Source: an uncultured Clostridia bacterium
GTDB lineage: Bacteria > Bacillota > Clostridia > Christensenellales > QALW01
Assembly: GCA_934434555.1 (NCBI GenBank)
Contig: CAKRZX010000011.1
Span: 3,620 to 67,619 of the forward strand
Reading direction: 5' to 3'
DNA length: 64,000 nucleotides
In this document: in pieces, positions 714 through 7,142 of the stretch
How the letters are laid out: each line of letters starts with the position of its first letter
Numbering within the stretch: position 1 is the stretch's first letter
The notes under the pieces: model-generated
What the model saw: the letters and a program-made list of their open reading frames with translations, nothing else
Databases searched by the model: none
Told to the model about the DNA's origin: nothing
Program-made: the position numbers and the translations under genes

Positions 714-1082
714 ATGAAAAATTACTATGACACATTTGTTGGATTCTGTTTACAATTGTGCACAAAACATGATTATAAAAGTGCGTTAAAAGTAAAGAGA
801 CATAATAGAGCAATGACAAAAATTGATAAACTGATAGAGGAAATAAATAATGCAGATTGTTCTAAGGTTTTTGGGGAATTGCTTAATCACGACAATGAAA
901 ATGTAAAACTTGGTGCCGCGTCTGCATGCTTGCAGTCGAATATTTTTGTGGATAAAGCAGTTGATACATTAAAAAAACTGTCTGAGACAACGGAAGATTG
1001 GTCAATTTCTTTTTCAGCAAAAATGGTTTTAGAACAATTCGAGAAGAACAATAAAATGTCTACGAAAGAGACAAATAAATGA
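714..1082 (+). CDS. Putative cognate immunity protein (small helical-repeat protein)
   Basis: 122-aa ORF starting 12 nt after the toxin stop on the same strand. It has no signal peptide and is predicted helical (..NENVKLGAASACLQSNIFVDKAVDTLKKL..). The call rests on position; no family was recognised. Confidence 0.55.
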   Translation: MKNYYDTFVGFCLQLCTKHDYKSALKVKRHNRAMTKIDKLIEEINNADCSKVFGELLNHDNENVKLGAASACLQSNIFVDKAVDTLKKLSETTEDWSISFSAKMVLEQFEKNNKMSTKETNK

Positions 1083-1258
1083 ACCTTTGCAAACTAATAT
1101 CGGTCGCGATATCAGTTATTTTACTAACGCCGATACTTCAAAGCACTGTTGACGCGGAGAAATGGACAAGCGCGTTTGATTCCCGCCAAACGGCGCAGAG
1201 TATCTCGCTTAAACTGAATTTTAATCCGCTTTCGCTTGATTCGATAGAGAAACATTGA
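1079..1258 (+). pseudogene. Toxin-family N-terminal stub A (signal peptide plus ~35 aa, then stop)
   Basis: 59-codon ORF below the track cutoff, overlapping the upstream stop (ATGA). Translation: MNLCKLISVAISVILLTPILQSTVDAEKWTSAFDSRQTAQSISLKLNFNPLSLDSIEKH*. It is roughly 90% identical at the nt level to 4916-5040 and 7005-7118, and its signal peptide resembles that of ORF 15241. Confidence 0.6.
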
Positions 1259-1334
1259 AGGATATTTGGAGGACGGTTATGAAGGAAATGATATACACAA
1301 ATAAGATTGATGATGAAATGAGGAGGTACAGACA

Positions 1335-1901
1335 ATGGTAAAAAGAGTTGTGCTCAAAAGCATTATAATAACAACAGCAGTTATAATGTGCAGTTGCGGG
1401 ATAAAAAAAGAAAATACATCAAGCAATACTTCTCTACCGCAGCCAATGAAGCAAGTGACTGATGATTTCACGGAACAAAACAGTCAGCAATATGATATTT
1501 ATGAAATAACCGACGGCGAATCGGATTTTTCGAAAGCAATTAACGCGAATGAAATTGATGCTGAATTCAATAAGAAACTTGAAGGTGCAACAAGCACGGC
1601 AGAAATAAATGAAGTGCAGATAGAATATAAAGATGCGTGGGAAAGGGAGATGCACTCGACGGAAGAAGAGTATTGCGAAATGCTTTCGGAACAGGATGCA
1701 ACGGATTTTCGCAGAATTCAGAAATCGTGGGAAGAGAGCGTAATTGCCGATATTCAAAAAGACCGCGAGATTTTGCAGAATAATGATACTTCGTTGGGAA
1801 GTGCATCATTTTACTTGTTTACGGCTGAAATCAGGAATCAATTTAGAAACAGAACGATAAAGATTAAATATATGATATATCTGCTCAAAAACGCAGAATG
1901 A
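1335..1901 (+). CDS. Lipoprotein, DUF1311/LprI-like (lysozyme-inhibitor-like fold)
   Basis: 188 aa with a signal peptide and lipobox-like VIMCSCG. The C-terminal half has a DUF1311-like pattern (..YKDAWEREM..EEYCEML..FRRIQKSWEES..). Confidence 0.55.
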   Translation: MVKRVVLKSIIITTAVIMCSCGIKKENTSSNTSLPQPMKQVTDDFTEQNSQQYDIYEITDGESDFSKAINANEIDAEFNKKLEGATSTAEINEVQIEYKDAWEREMHSTEEEYCEMLSEQDATDFRRIQKSWEESVIADIQKDREILQNNDTSLGSASFYLFTAEIRNQFRNRTIKIKYMIYLLKNAE

Positions 1902-1989
1902 GCAGAACTTAACGGTTTGCAGAAATAGACGGAACGAAAGTAATTTATGAACACGATGAATTAGGCAAGAGGTGAAGGGCGCAATTAAC

Positions 1990-2718
1990 ATGAAGAAAAA
2001 TATGAATTTTGTGTTGTACTTTCTTTTAATTGTAAGTATGCTGATGTGTTCCTGTGAAAAGAAAAAGGGCTTAGAGTGCGAAAATAATCCAACTGAAAAA
2101 ACGGGTAATAATTTCGGAATAGTCACTGTTGAACAGATAAACGATGATTATATTAAAACTATGCTTATATGCGCCTATTCTGACGGCAAATTTATGAGTA
2201 TTGAAGATTTAACCGCAAACGGTGAGAAAATCGGAGCCTTATTTGACAGTGGCTGCTTTGAAAACGGAATTGAACTGAAAAATATTTCGTTGGATTTTTT
2301 AGGGACAAATAATGCCGTTGTTTTTCAAAATAGCATTGGTGGGAAGTGTGCTATTCGCAACGAAATTATTTTCAGTGATTCAAATGCTGAGTTTTATGCG
2401 TATGTATATTTGCAAAGCATCAAATTGACGGGAGTTAAAGAAAATCAAATAGGTGTTATCGGTAATGTTAAAGTTAATAACTTTGGTGAATGTGTGTTAT
2501 CGGTTTCTGATAACAGCATAAAAACGGAGAATTATTCTGTTGATATCAGCGAAGATGAATGCATAAAAACTGAACTGATGTCGGGCTTTGAAATAGACAG
2601 CAAACAGTATTTTGTTTTGAAAAGGGAATATGTATACGGTTCGATTGCATATCAAGTATATTTTTTAGACAATGACGGAATAAAGAGAATCAGCCATATT
2701 TCATTTGAAGAGGCGTGA
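1990..2718 (+). CDS. Hypothetical lipoprotein
   Basis: Track ORF 1972..2718; ATG at 1990 gives MKKNMNFVLYFLLIVSMLMCSCEKK (signal peptide plus Cys). No recognisable domain. Confidence 0.55.
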   Translation: MKKNMNFVLYFLLIVSMLMCSCEKKKGLECENNPTEKTGNNFGIVTVEQINDDYIKTMLICAYSDGKFMSIEDLTANGEKIGALFDSGCFENGIELKNISLDFLGTNNAVVFQNSIGGKCAIRNEIIFSDSNAEFYAYVYLQSIKLTGVKENQIGVIGNVKVNNFGECVLSVSDNSIKTENYSVDISEDECIKTELMSGFEIDSKQYFVLKREYVYGSIAYQVYFLDNDGIKRISHISFEEA

Positions 2719-2737
2719 TGTGTGGGAGGGTAAAAAT

Positions 2738-5092: not shown

Positions 5093-5251
5093 GAACAGAT
5101 TATTACCTCAACGAACAAGACGAACAATCAAATAAACGGAATAAGTCCTAACAATCCTAAATTAGGCATTTATAAAGAAGCGACGAAAGGAATGCTTGGT
5201 TACGCATGGAATCAAGTTTCGAATGAAATCCTTTATTGGACCGAAAACTAA
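5093..5251 (+). pseudogene. Orphan toxin C-terminal tip remnant, in frame with stub B across a single TAA
   Basis: Same frame as stub B, directly after its stop: EQIITSTNKTNNQINGISPNNPKLGIYKEATKGMLGYAWNQVSNEILYWTEN*. It ends 12 nt before an immunity-type gene with RBS AAGGAG. Confidence 0.4.
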
Positions 5252-5263
5252 GGAGATAATAGT

Positions 5264-6358
5264 ATGGGAACATGGGGAGTTAAACTGTATGAAAATGATA
5301 CTGCATTAGAAGTTAAAGAGCGATTCGATGATTTGCGGAAAGGGAAAAACGTTCGTCAGATTACCGATGCATTAATTGATGAGTATTCGGAAGAGTTGAA
5401 TGACGAATATGATGCACCAAATTTTTGGTTCGCATTGGCAGATATGCAGTGGAATTTAGGACAACTACTGCCGGACGTTATGCATAAGAGAACCGACGCC
5501 TGACGCCGAAAACGGTTCTTTTTGCCGATATTCTGTTTCGTCCTCCTTGAAATACGCCCGGTATTCCTGCGTCGTCCTCAACAAATCTCGACAAAAATAA
5601 TCCGTTTTCGGTGCGAGCAGTTTTAACGGAACAGATTTTTGTCGGGACAAGAAAGACGGTGAAGGTAATATCGGGCATATTTCCAAACCGTCTGCCGCAG
5701 TATCCGGCGAAAATATGTCCGTTAAAACCGTTAGGTGTTCGGCTCTCTTATGCATAAAGAACAGGCACTTGTATGGCTTGACAGAGGCGGAGATTTGCCG
5801 GTATGGAGAGAGGAAAATCCAAAACTTGCGGCAAAAAGAGAAAAGATATTGTTCGAATTACAAAGGAAGTTAAATTCTCCGCAACCGCCCGAAAAAAAGA
5901 TTCCGCAGTACCGCCTTTATAAGTGCGAATGGAGAATCGGAGATATTTTTGCGTATCAATTTAACAGTGAATATGCCAAAGACAATGGCTTTTATCATAA
6001 GTATATTTACTTTGTAAAGGTGGACGAGAAAGTGTGGTATCCGGGACATATTGTACCTGTCGTGTACGTTTACAAAAAAGTTGATGATGCAATGTCAGAC
6101 ATAGATTCATTGAAAAATATCGGCTTTATACCGCAATTTTATGAACCGACAGCATATAAAAACTATCCCGAAATGAAAGTGCAGTATTTGTTGACATTAC
6201 TTAATACATCGCCGCGGGTAATACCGAAAAATCAACTGACGTATCTCGGAAACACGGGCGATGTAAAACGCATTGACGGTGAAAATCAGAATTCGTATGA
6301 TGTAAATTGGAAACGCTTTGAGAAATATATGATTGATAATTTCAAAGCATGGCTTTAA
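5264..6358 (+). pseudogene. DUF4259-like immunity-type protein, split by a 274-bp TIR element
   Basis: Two same-frame ORFs, 5264..5503 (MGTWGVKLYENDTALEV.. , DUF4259-style N-terminus) and 5735..6358. Removing 5481-5756 (element plus one TA) gives continuous ..WNLGQLLPDVKEQALVWLDRGGDL... Confidence 0.7.
5481..5754 (+). mobile_element. MITE-like non-autonomous element, copy 1 (TIRs, TA target duplication)
   Basis: Left end TGCATAAGAGAACCGACGCC; reverse complement of right end TGCATAAGAGAGCCGAACACC. Flanking TA at 5479-5480 and 5755-5756. No credible internal ORF. Its internal blocks are shared with 17663-17928. Confidence 0.65.
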
Positions 6359-6401
6359 TGTTCGGTTGACAGGACAGAGCGCAAAACGCGCGGGAACGAT
6401 T

Positions 6402-6989
6402 ATGGAAAAAGGCAGTTTTTCAAAAGAAAAAATACGTTGGTGGCTTAGATATCTCTTTAATATGCGCAGTGCAAACGATGAGTTGACGTCTTACAGGTAC
6501 CCGATAATAAAAATACTGTTTTTTGCGGTATTGTGGTGTATGCTGACACTTAGAGGGTATGTATTTAATTACGATACGACAATGAAAAAGATTATCGATT
6601 ACGTCATTGTTTCGGGATTTATTCCGCTTGTTGGAATTTGCTCGATAATTGCATTTGCAGAAATGATACTTGTATATGAAAACAAGGAAACCGAAAAGAA
6701 ACTAAAACGAAAAAAGGCTTATGATATGCCTGTTGACAAAATAGTATCACTGGCAGAGGAAAATGATATTATAGAATTTATGATTGCAGCAGATGATAAA
6801 AAAATAAAAATCGGCGCAAGTTCGGATTGTGAGAACAATAGTTTTACATTCTTCGATAAGCGGTATTATATCGGAAAACAGGAATATGAAAACATTGATG
6901 AATTCAGGGAAAAGGTACAGGAATTCTCGGATAACGGAACAATCAAGGTTGTTTCGATTGACGGAGTTTCGCCGAAGTACTACGAGTAG
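6402..6989 (+). CDS. Hypothetical membrane protein
   Basis: ATG 6402 (MEKGSFSKEK..); two central TM helices and a soluble C-terminal domain. The track ORF starts at 6333. Confidence 0.5.
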   Translation: MEKGSFSKEKIRWWLRYLFNMRSANDELTSYRYPIIKILFFAVLWCMLTLRGYVFNYDTTMKKIIDYVIVSGFIPLVGICSIIAFAEMILVYENKETEKKLKRKKAYDMPVDKIVSLAEENDIIEFMIAADDKKIKIGASSDCENNSFTFFDKRYYIGKQEYENIDEFREKVQEFSDNGTIKVVSIDGVSPKYYE

Positions 6990-6992
6990 GGA

Positions 6993-7142
6993 ATGTTTAT
7001 GATTTGCAAACTAATCTCAATCGCTTCATCGGTTATCTCTCTAACGCCGATATTTCAAAGCACTGCTGACGCGGAGAAATGGACAAGTGCGTTTGATTTC
7101 CGCCAAACGGTGCAGAGCATTTGGTCTCCCGAACGGCAGTGA
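6993..7142 (+). pseudogene. Toxin-family N-terminal stub C
   Basis: 49-codon ORF: MFMICKLISIASSVISLTPIFQSTADAEKWTSAFDFRQTVQSIWSPERQ*. Homologous to stubs A and B. Confidence 0.6.

Follow-up and report, generated by a model that had tools for sequence, protein, structure and literature searches.

Why should an array of immunity genes carry repeated 5' ends of a secreted protein? The question is raised by a 64,000 nt stretch of DNA from an uncultured Clostridia bacterium (GenBank assembly GCA_934434555.1, contig CAKRZX010000011.1, positions 3,620 to 67,619), which is referred to as the window. The window starts within a large polymorphic toxin island of Rhs/WapA type, in an uncultured gut Clostridia species that forms spores, and three copies of a sequence that we named leader A lie between the small genes of this island. 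The initial annotation took the copies for toxin N-terminal stubs, either scars of tandem full-length toxin genes or homology arms for the re-attachment of downstream cassettes. In our view the three repeats are very probably the 5' remnants of short rhs genes with leader A, the bodies of which were deleted while the immunity genes were kept. The observations behind this view are the homology of the stubs to intact genes, the presence/absence polymorphism at one site, the breakpoints, a conversion patch, and the coding constraint on the leader. The direction and the selective cause of the deletions are our inference.

Three Copies of Leader A in the Window

A 43 nt core of the repeat was present at 1139, 4928, and 7056 of the 64 kb window, always on the forward strand and with 0–1 mismatch. 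Dinucleotide-preserving shuffles gave no match to this core. A repeat finder and a MAFFT alignment recovered the same three copies as the core search, and no further leader-A copies were found in the window. Identity was 91% over 124 nt for copies 1 and 2, 86% over 118 nt for copies 1 and 3, and 89% over 75 nt for copies 2 and 3. The proposed repeat of about 90% identity at three sites was borne out by these values (86%–91%), with no copies expected by chance.

The open reading frame (ORF) at 1079–1258 encodes 59 amino acids (aa), MNLCKLISVAISVILLTPILQSTVDAEKWTSAFD...SIEKH*, and the ORF at 6993–7142 encodes 49 aa. Both read, as claimed, as a signal peptide followed by the first residues of a protein. 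A signal peptide in every stub was seen for stubs 1 and 3, but copy 2 lacks the signal-peptide half and the start codon. Homology to the intact gene described below spans 1079–1252, 4918–5063, and 6993/7003–7120; the three sites had been placed correctly, but the copies are of unequal extent. The count of three stubs was confirmed as well, but a fourth stub with a related leader lies at 15241–15615, beyond the region considered earlier. An assembly artefact was ruled out, because the same stubs are present in independent assemblies of several projects.

Leader A Opens Short rhs Genes at the Same Site

Contigs of the same species (L numbers) were fetched by exact-protein look-ups with stub 1 and with the 122 aa immunity protein encoded upstream of it. 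The related contigs stem from human gut metagenomes of Hadza and other cohorts. In L004 and L007, the ATG after the 122 aa immunity gene opens an intact leader-A rhs gene of 883 aa and 843 aa, respectively. Both genes start with MSLCKLISIALSVISLTPIFQSTVDAEKWTSAFD..SIEKISDAVAKFALKSDTTSAEYTPSKNY.., with the reading MSLCKLISIALSVISLTPIFQSTVDAEKWTSAFD..SLDSIEKISDAVAKFALKSDTTSAEYTPSKNYMSSQTDALGN.. before the YD repeats, and continue with YD repeats and a toxin tip. At the same site, the 59 aa stub is found in the window and in L001–L003, L005, L006, L008, and L011. Up to 1252 the window shares 98% identity with L004 and L007, beyond which it is unrelated to them. The proposal that the stubs are coding N-terminal remnants of toxin genes was supported.

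Positions 1–11082 of the window correspond to L001:9288–20369 with 99.98% identity. L001 also carries an intact 880 aa leader-A gene (4464–7106), the end of which lies about 2.2 kb upstream of window position 1. The window opens within the gene L001:8034–9989, which encodes 651 aa and carries another leader, leader B (VKGANVFRKLISIALSCAIAVTTLSVVADA|KS..). Leaders A and B have a common 5' untranslated region and first ~12 codons and show 33% identity over 69 residues. Leader A consists of a Sec-type signal peptide and about 50 further residues, fused in frame to the YD-repeat core. The leader-A genes matched the Pfam family RHS_repeat (PF05593) with E = 8e-37 in L004, 2.5e-38 in L001, 3e-32 in L007, and 1e-33 in L012. 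TEN_YD-shell was among the precomputed domain matches of the rhs genes, and the 883 aa gene of L004 carries a Tox-REase-7 tip according to Pfam.

A census of 27 loci gave a length of 843–883 aa for intact leader-A genes and of 621–656 aa for intact leader-B genes. It also included leader-A genes broken by a frameshift or stop (98+690, 165+663, and 230+627 aa) and stubs alongside the intact and split genes. The start codon of leader-A and leader-B genes is either an ATG overlapping the upstream stop or the GTG of AAAGGAG-N5-GTG. Leaderless orphans of the classical kind coexist in the same loci, for example genes of 482 aa and 454 aa in L004.

A comparison of the stubs with the 5' end of the full toxin gene had been suggested. 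The main rhs gene was found via P0014, a homologue with 94% identity to the 108 aa immunity protein of the window. It lies at L023:2281–9990, directly downstream of spoIIIAH, encodes 2569 aa, and matches PF05593 with E = 4e-39. By inspection and a crude hydropathy and (−3,−1) check, its N-terminus is a signal peptide, MKQMKHLSKIISAVLAAVITVCATAITAGA|EDG. The N-terminus of the 2569 aa protein has no detectable similarity to the stubs, and its signal peptide has none to leaders A and B. We rejected the leader as a copy of the main 5' end, the likeness being limited to generic signal-peptide character. Residues 69–671 of the leader-A protein A883 are 82% identical to residues 1786–2377 of the main protein, and residues 67–448 of the leader-B protein B621 are 75% identical to residues 1990–2371. 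Leader A joins the core at main residue ~1786 and leader B at ~2003. Since leader A replaces everything upstream of residue ~1786, the stubs do not derive from full-length gene copies. The idea of scars of collapsed full-length toxin genes is right as to the scars, with intact genes at the same site in L004 and L007 and at L001:4464–7106, but the parents were short, 840–883 aa.

The YD region of the main protein is split. Repeats at residues ~500–800 are followed by an insert of ~1000 residues and then by a YD block of ~590 residues, which is the block common to the short genes. The insert gave a sub-threshold match to a ricin-type lectin family (PF14200, 24.4 bits versus a cut-off of 25.6 bits). 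It also holds carbohydrate-binding-like sequence, and leader A is grafted exactly at its end.

The motif [FY]AYCxNNPxxxxDxxG closes the core in 21 genes. Counted from the start of the motif, the tips have 177–231 aa and belong to unrelated types, including Tox-REase-7, Tox-REase-9, Tox-URI2, and HNH-like. In this species the island starts with the main gene, followed by tandem toxin-immunity cassettes. Judged from the sequences, the locus is of WapA/Rhs type by every feature tested: YD repeats, a core-end motif with a variable tip, immunity genes, and a secretion signal.

Each Stub Ends at a Different Junction

Stub 1 is an ORF of 59 codons on the forward strand (1079–1258), the ATG of which overlaps the stop codon of the upstream immunity gene (ATGA). 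Leader A covers 1079–1252, encoding the signal peptide and 32 mature residues, and the junction follows GAGAAA at 1252. The sequence from 1253 to 1334 on the same strand probably represents the 3' tail of the lost toxin and the ribosome binding site (RBS) of the next gene. The junction and the sequence downstream of it recur in L002, L021, and P0003–P0007.

Stub 2 (4918–5063, forward strand) is a fragment of leader A that extends from codon ~17 to ..SIEKISDAIAK and is 93% identical to L001:4511–4656. It has neither RBS nor start codon and keeps only the end of the signal peptide. At its 5' edge, 174 nt are missing in comparison to L002 (7172 to 7346), comprising the intergenic region, the RBS, the GTG, and ~16 codons. 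At its 3' edge it is joined through a 3 nt microhomology, AAT, to a 53 nt out-of-frame fragment of the YD core (5061–5113, forward strand; IRTSKTVNGVRTDYYLN), which gave blastn matches to the core of many rhs genes. In tblastn the core fragment showed 90% identity over 20 aa at 5053–5112, an alignment that crosses the junction into the leader fragment. The following segment (5114–5250, forward strand; ..KEATKGMLGYAWNQVSNEILYWTEN*) presumably belonged to the 3' end of the toxin gene that disappeared at stub 2, as suggested by its position before a DUF4259-family gene. It gave no Pfam match and had no homologue in the fetched loci.

Stub 3 (6993–7142, forward strand) is an ORF of 49 codons. Leader A extends to 7120 and encodes the signal peptide and 17 mature residues. 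The junction follows GCAGAGCAT, and unrelated sequence beyond it leads to a 252 aa gene. Alternative-frame translations after the three junctions, read by eye, end with ..NIEGYLEDGYEGNDIHK*, ..GYAWNQVSNEILYWTEN*, and ..VSRTAVKGDEAYR*.

The three junctions are different and none lies in shared sequence, which argues for three separate illegitimate deletions. With no more than 3 nt of microhomology at the junctions, the deletions were illegitimate and did not occur by recombination between repeats. The proposed collapse through recombination between tandem genes was thus not supported: the junctions are non-homologous or have 3 nt of microhomology, and the deletions are internal.

The fourth stub (15241–15615, forward strand, 124 codons) consists of leader B (MNLRKLISIALSCAIAVTTLSVVASA|KS..) and ~45 codons of the YD core, followed by a stop. 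It is 87.5% identical to residues 7–126 of B621, its core part matches main residues 2004–2050, and its nucleotide identity to L001:8038–8398 is 93%. It directly precedes an MBL-fold-like gene at 15630 and apparently lies at the distal boundary of the rhs island. A remnant of a 3' toxin tail, the last 22 codons, was found by tblastn at 4500–4565 on the forward strand (68% identity to residues 2546–2567 of main_L023); the 108 aa immunity gene of this toxin comes right after it. Window 4501–4917 is 94% identical to L002:6753–7172 and L012:6342–6761. No core remnants were found in the window other than those at 1–75 (end of the rhs gene), at stub 2, and at the fourth stub. The tail remnant at 4500–4565 is a 3' scar of the usual kind within the same array as the 5' scars.

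Deletion also affected the locus on a larger scale. Contig L021 (Logan SRR30201830) belongs to the same species, with 96.8% identity in the spoIIIA flank, but its whole rhs island has collapsed. The remnant comprises the initial 271 codons of the main gene, which are fused to a piece of the core, and further some small genes, part of leader B, and an EKH-type leader-A stub, after which the sequence joins the window at ~17485. This collapse indicates that N-terminal stubs are a general deletion product in the rhs locus.

According to the mechanism we propose, separate illegitimate deletions, one per stub, would have taken out the YD core and the toxin of three leader-A genes and spared the downstream immunity genes. 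At stubs 1 and 3 the leader would have been joined to unrelated 3' sequence, and stub 2 would have lost both ends. The cause may be that costly or dangerous toxins were lost and protective immunity genes retained. The outcome would be a heterogeneous orphan-immunity array punctuated by 5' scars. The stubs are deletion scars, the product of ordinary decay in a very recombinogenic WapA/Rhs locus, and most likely have no function of their own.

Gene Conversion and Shuffling of Toxin Tips

Stub 1 of the window and the stub of L002 have the same junction, with 100% identity of the flanks over 328 nt on the upstream side and 88 nt on the downstream side. Within the leader, 17 of 174 positions differ, versus 0 of 416 in the flanks. 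Of these 17 positions, 9 agree between the window and the intact leader in its own genome (L001:4533). The L002 stub and the intact genes at this site in L004 and L007 have 100% identical leaders. The simplest reading of these sequences is that stub 1 of the window lineage holds a gene-conversion tract from a paralogous leader. As the conversion of stub 1 shows, the stubs still serve as recombination substrates.

Toxin tips were also exchanged. The HNH-like tip together with the 122 aa gene occurs at 99%–100% identity behind leader B in L001, behind leader A in L002, and in a leaderless orphan in L004. For another tip, the copies on the main gene of L012 and on leader-B genes of L002 and L022 are 100% identical. 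The Tox-URI2 tip is carried by the main gene in L004 and by a leader-B gene in L022. The name "C-terminal displacement" reportedly comes from Jackson et al. in 2009.

Such exchange raises the question of whether the stubs were selected as landing pads for recombination, that is, as short 5' homology arms, each right behind an immunity gene, for the re-insertion of incoming or paralogous cassettes with a leader or for the re-attachment of downstream cassettes to a secretion-competent start. The conversion patch between perfectly identical flanks is in line with this, as is the movement of tips among main, leader-A, leader-B, and leaderless contexts. The site after the 122 aa gene is polymorphic, with a stub, an 883 aa gene with REase-7, or an 843 aa gene with another tip, and the model of homology-facilitated illegitimate recombination put forward for immunity arrays of Vibrio needs exactly one conserved anchor (PMC5361080). 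However, recombination between repeats follows from the existence of repeats and does not prove selection. Stub 2, without a start codon and most of the signal peptide, cannot supply a working 5' end, and the three stubs are truncated at three different points. Restoration of a full gene from a stub was not seen among the loci, and the pair of L002 stub and L004 gene can be read either way. We therefore consider selection as landing pads improbable. Support for the suggested homology arms is circumstantial, from the stub-1 conversion patch and a tip shared across leader contexts, and stub 2 is too decayed for such a role.

Coding Constraint and Distribution of Leader A

The 43 nt core is near-invariant at the DNA level across all copies, most synonymous sites included, and the copies lie at cassette boundaries. 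Both observations would suit a non-coding element, such as a dispersed repeat, a regulatory RNA, or an integron-like recombination site. However, no Rfam family was found in the window other than one tRNA away from the stubs, and no recombinase gene was seen in the array. All related leader copies belong to rhs loci, always share one frame, and stand at the beginning of an ORF, and the two genes upstream carry leaders B and A, so that a dispersed repeat at unrelated loci was not what we found. Substitutions in the leader are biased to synonymous sites: the ratio of nonsynonymous to synonymous polymorphism (pN/pS) among 8 intact copies was 0.33 (0.41 for the signal-peptide part and 0.30 for the mature part) and that of the first 20 adjoining core codons 0.27, as pooled over non-independent pairs of short sequences. 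Since the adjacent YD core is equally conserved between copies, the identity at the DNA level is explained by concerted evolution. We give almost no credence to a non-coding element. A promoter and terminator scan of 1–9400 gave counts equal to the level of shuffled sequences.

Could the stubs be small functional genes for a signal peptide and a secreted peptide of 20–35 residues, for example a signal or decoy? Stubs 1 and 3 begin with a start codon, stay open, and encode a plausible Sec signal, the ..SIEKH* form exists in several diverged variants, and the EKH stub has a pN/pS of 0.40. This value, based on three sequences, is indistinguishable from that of intact leaders and could be imported by conversion. 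The same sequence forms the 5' end of 840–883 aa genes at the same site, a start codon is missing from stub 2, the three stub ORFs have mutually unrelated C-termini, and variant P0006 reads through the stop. The stub peptides had no Pfam match at E up to 0.01. A HMMER profile search of 1.84 billion representatives returned six hits, only two of which were genuine relatives, both short stubs of the same kind. The other four (P0008–P0010 and P0012) were translated satellite-like repeats and were dismissed as spurious. On this evidence a function as small genes is very unlikely.

No confirmed relative of leader A was found among 185,579 GTDB species representatives and JGI metagenomes, and so far leader A is confined to this lineage. 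A word-indexed protein search with leader A returned only short stubs, although genes of 840–883 aa exist in the collection. The same search with an internal 400 aa piece of the main protein gave no match, so that its negatives are unreliable for long Rhs proteins.

Predicted Export Function and Points Against the Preferred Explanation

Sec signal peptides were recognized by a positive n-region, an h-region of 10–15 residues, and small residues at −3/−1. Leader A has K at position 4–5, a 12-residue h-region (LISIALSVISLT), and the site VDA|EKW; the mean Kyte-Doolittle value of the h-region is ~2.3–2.8. Leader B has a cleavage-like site, ASA|KS. A lipoprotein signal in leader B (ALSC) was discarded by inspection, because the h-region is too short, the residue at −3 is wrong, and the ASA|K site follows. 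Both leaders probably act as Sec export signals, as judged by inspection and the crude hydropathy and (−3,−1) check.

A further idea goes beyond the origin of the stubs. Leaders A and B might constitute a portable Sec-export module of a signal peptide and a linker of ~50 residues, kept by purifying selection, without relation to the N-terminus of the main protein, and to date known from this lineage only. By means of it, orphans would become self-translated and self-secreted mini-Rhs toxins with a partial YD shell. The leader copies, stubs included, would then form a network of conversion and recombination that chooses, for a given strain, between armed tips (on the main gene, leader A, or leader B) and silent ones (leaderless or stub). 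We put this forward tentatively and regard it as rather doubtful.

Several points weigh against our preferred explanation, in addition to the limits of the pN/pS values and of the signal-peptide assignment given above. Leader-A genes have ~590 residues of the YD core and leader-B genes ~380, probably too little for a closed Rhs shell, and for this reason the parent genes themselves may be non-functional. A blastn search of the three post-junction segments against all fetched loci found no intact donor genes, and therefore the segments are assigned as probable toxin tails by position. Finally, the EKH* stub exists in at least five sequence variants (P0003–P0007, L002), with the ORF open in most. 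This could hint at retention, and conversion and hitch-hiking with the downstream gene fit equally well. Deletion of the bodies of short rhs genes remains our preferred explanation.

Comparison to Known Toxin-Immunity Loci

In the literature, orphan rhs modules lack translation initiation and export signals and are deployed only after recombination with the main gene (PMC3967940). Like the orphan rhs-CT/rhsI modules (Poole et al. 2011, PMC3150448; Koskiniemi et al. 2014, PMC3967940), the island described here has tandem tip-immunity pairs downstream, which share YD-core homology with the full-length gene, and exchange of tips with the main gene by recombination, as seen from identical tips on main and downstream genes. 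In contrast to classical orphan rhs modules, many of the genes have an RBS, a start codon, and, judging from sequence, their own Sec-type leader. Two related leader classes are grafted at two core positions, and the scars in the window are 5' leader remnants and not 3' tips. A full-text literature search found no description of signal-peptide-bearing orphan rhs genes, which does not exclude their existence.

WapA (wall-associated protein A) is an Rhs toxin of Gram-positive bacteria, and its locus in S. suis includes a truncated copy without a signal peptide, the core of which is incomplete and which is not delivered (PMC12704120). Both loci comprise a very large Sec-signal Rhs main gene with accessory N-terminal domains, a YD core and a polymorphic C-terminal toxin, a downstream immunity gene, and truncated duplications after the main gene. 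Unlike in S. suis, the truncated copies here carry a signal peptide, one without relation to the signal peptide of the main gene.

Orphan immunity arrays linked to V. cholerae's type VI secretion system (T6SS) arise through sequential effector displacement with one conserved anchor (PMC5361080), and heterogeneous polyimmunity loci are by definition free of intervening toxin genes or cassettes (Zhang et al. 2012, PMC3482391). The array in the window resembles both in its same-strand, unrelated immunity genes without toxins, its mosaic structure between strains, and a conserved upstream sequence as a possible single anchor. Unlike polyimmunity loci, it still contains the three leader stubs, a core fragment, and a remnant of a 3' tail, and unlike the V. 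cholerae arrays, it does not involve a T6SS.

The value of the stubs is that they document the passage from a toxin-immunity array to an orphan-immunity array. What is new here, compared to the accepted view of silent orphans, are orphan rhs genes with their own start codon and Sec-type leader. Both leader classes appear to be under purifying selection, and the same tips circulate among main, leader-bearing, and leaderless contexts. If the short proteins are exported and active, a partial YD shell would be enough for some form of delivery, and a single locus could deploy several toxins at once.

The Immunity Array and Neighboring Genes

Window positions 1–702 (forward strand, as all genes of the array) hold the 3' end, 233 codons, of the 651 aa leader-B rhs gene. 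It encodes ..NLFAYCGNNPTSRVDLTGE, a Gly/Ala-rich hydrophobic stretch, and an HNH-like tip with a weak match to Pfam HNH_2. The 122 aa immunity gene for this tip (714–1082) always follows it in L001–L008, and its product gave a sub-threshold match to Pfam DUF2019/HEAT_2. A tip of one type goes with one small downstream gene across strains, as seen for the HNH-like tip with the 122 aa gene and for the FAYCFNNPVNMSD tip with the 108 aa gene. The small genes behind tips would protect as cognate immunity genes, which for the unannotated ones is suggested by their place behind the tip.

Small genes on one strand make up the region 1335–9157, and few of them match Pfam families, DUF4259 being one such match. 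The region is free of any intact toxin gene or cassette and holds the three leader stubs, the 53 nt core fragment, and the 66 nt tail. This would make it a toxin-immunity array in decay, not a dedicated polyimmunity operon. The genes at 4582, 6402, and 8014 and the C-terminal half of the gene at 2705 are homologous to genes that follow tips elsewhere, which assigns them to immunity by synteny.

The 188 aa gene at 1335–1901 has a hydrophobic N-terminus and always follows the EKH-type stub. By its position it is the presumed immunity gene of stub 1; it has no Pfam match. A homologue with 94% identity to the 108 aa immunity gene (4582–4908) stands directly after a main or leader-B gene elsewhere. 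The DUF4259-family immunity gene at 5264–6358 (Pfam E = 4e-5) is split, and an uninterrupted 272 aa gene of this family lies at L002:15909–16727. The immunity-gene homologue of ~190 aa at 6402–6989 has relatives in L012 and L001, where they come after leader-A or orphan toxin genes. The 3' end of the window gene and the following leader are one duplicated unit: window 6431–7120 is 86% identical to L012:9433–10122, and window 6694–7120 is 84% identical to L001:4164–4585. The 252 aa gene at 7199–7957, without a Pfam match, is presumed from its position to be the immunity gene of stub 3. A homologue of the 229 aa gene at 8014 directly follows a toxin tip in related contigs.

The DUF4259-family gene is split by a 274 bp insertion at 5481–5754 that resembles a miniature inverted-repeat transposable element. 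It has a TA target duplication and terminal inverted repeats (TGCATAAGAGA(A/G)CCGA), and the empty site is present at L002:16124 (..GACGTTAAAGAAC..). The element has a weak partial match, 77% over 64 nt, at window 17693–17755.

The 176 aa membrane protein encoded at 2705–3235 (forward strand) looks chimeric. Positions 2967–3231 are 96% identical to the 3' half of a 171 aa immunity gene that follows a 690 aa rhs gene in L012 (12644–12908), and the 5' half has no match there.

Window segments 4423–4502 and 15235–15610 are only 72 nt apart in L004 (15630–15702). Compared to L004, the window carries ~10.7 kb of additional sequence (4503–15234), including stubs 2 and 3, their immunity genes, and metabolic-looking genes. 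The latter lie at 9352–13162 inside the toxin island and comprise an LCM-type methyltransferase, ATC_hydrolase, ApbA, and a second methyltransferase.

The rest of the window is ordinary chromosome with uvrC, pckA, yloV, and aroE/aroK. The best match to UvrC among the GTDB species genomes was 77%, to a metagenome-assembled genome of an uncultured Oscillospiraceae. A tRNA gene, unrelated to the stubs, lies on the reverse strand at 54247–54328 (Rfam RF00005, 52.6 bits).

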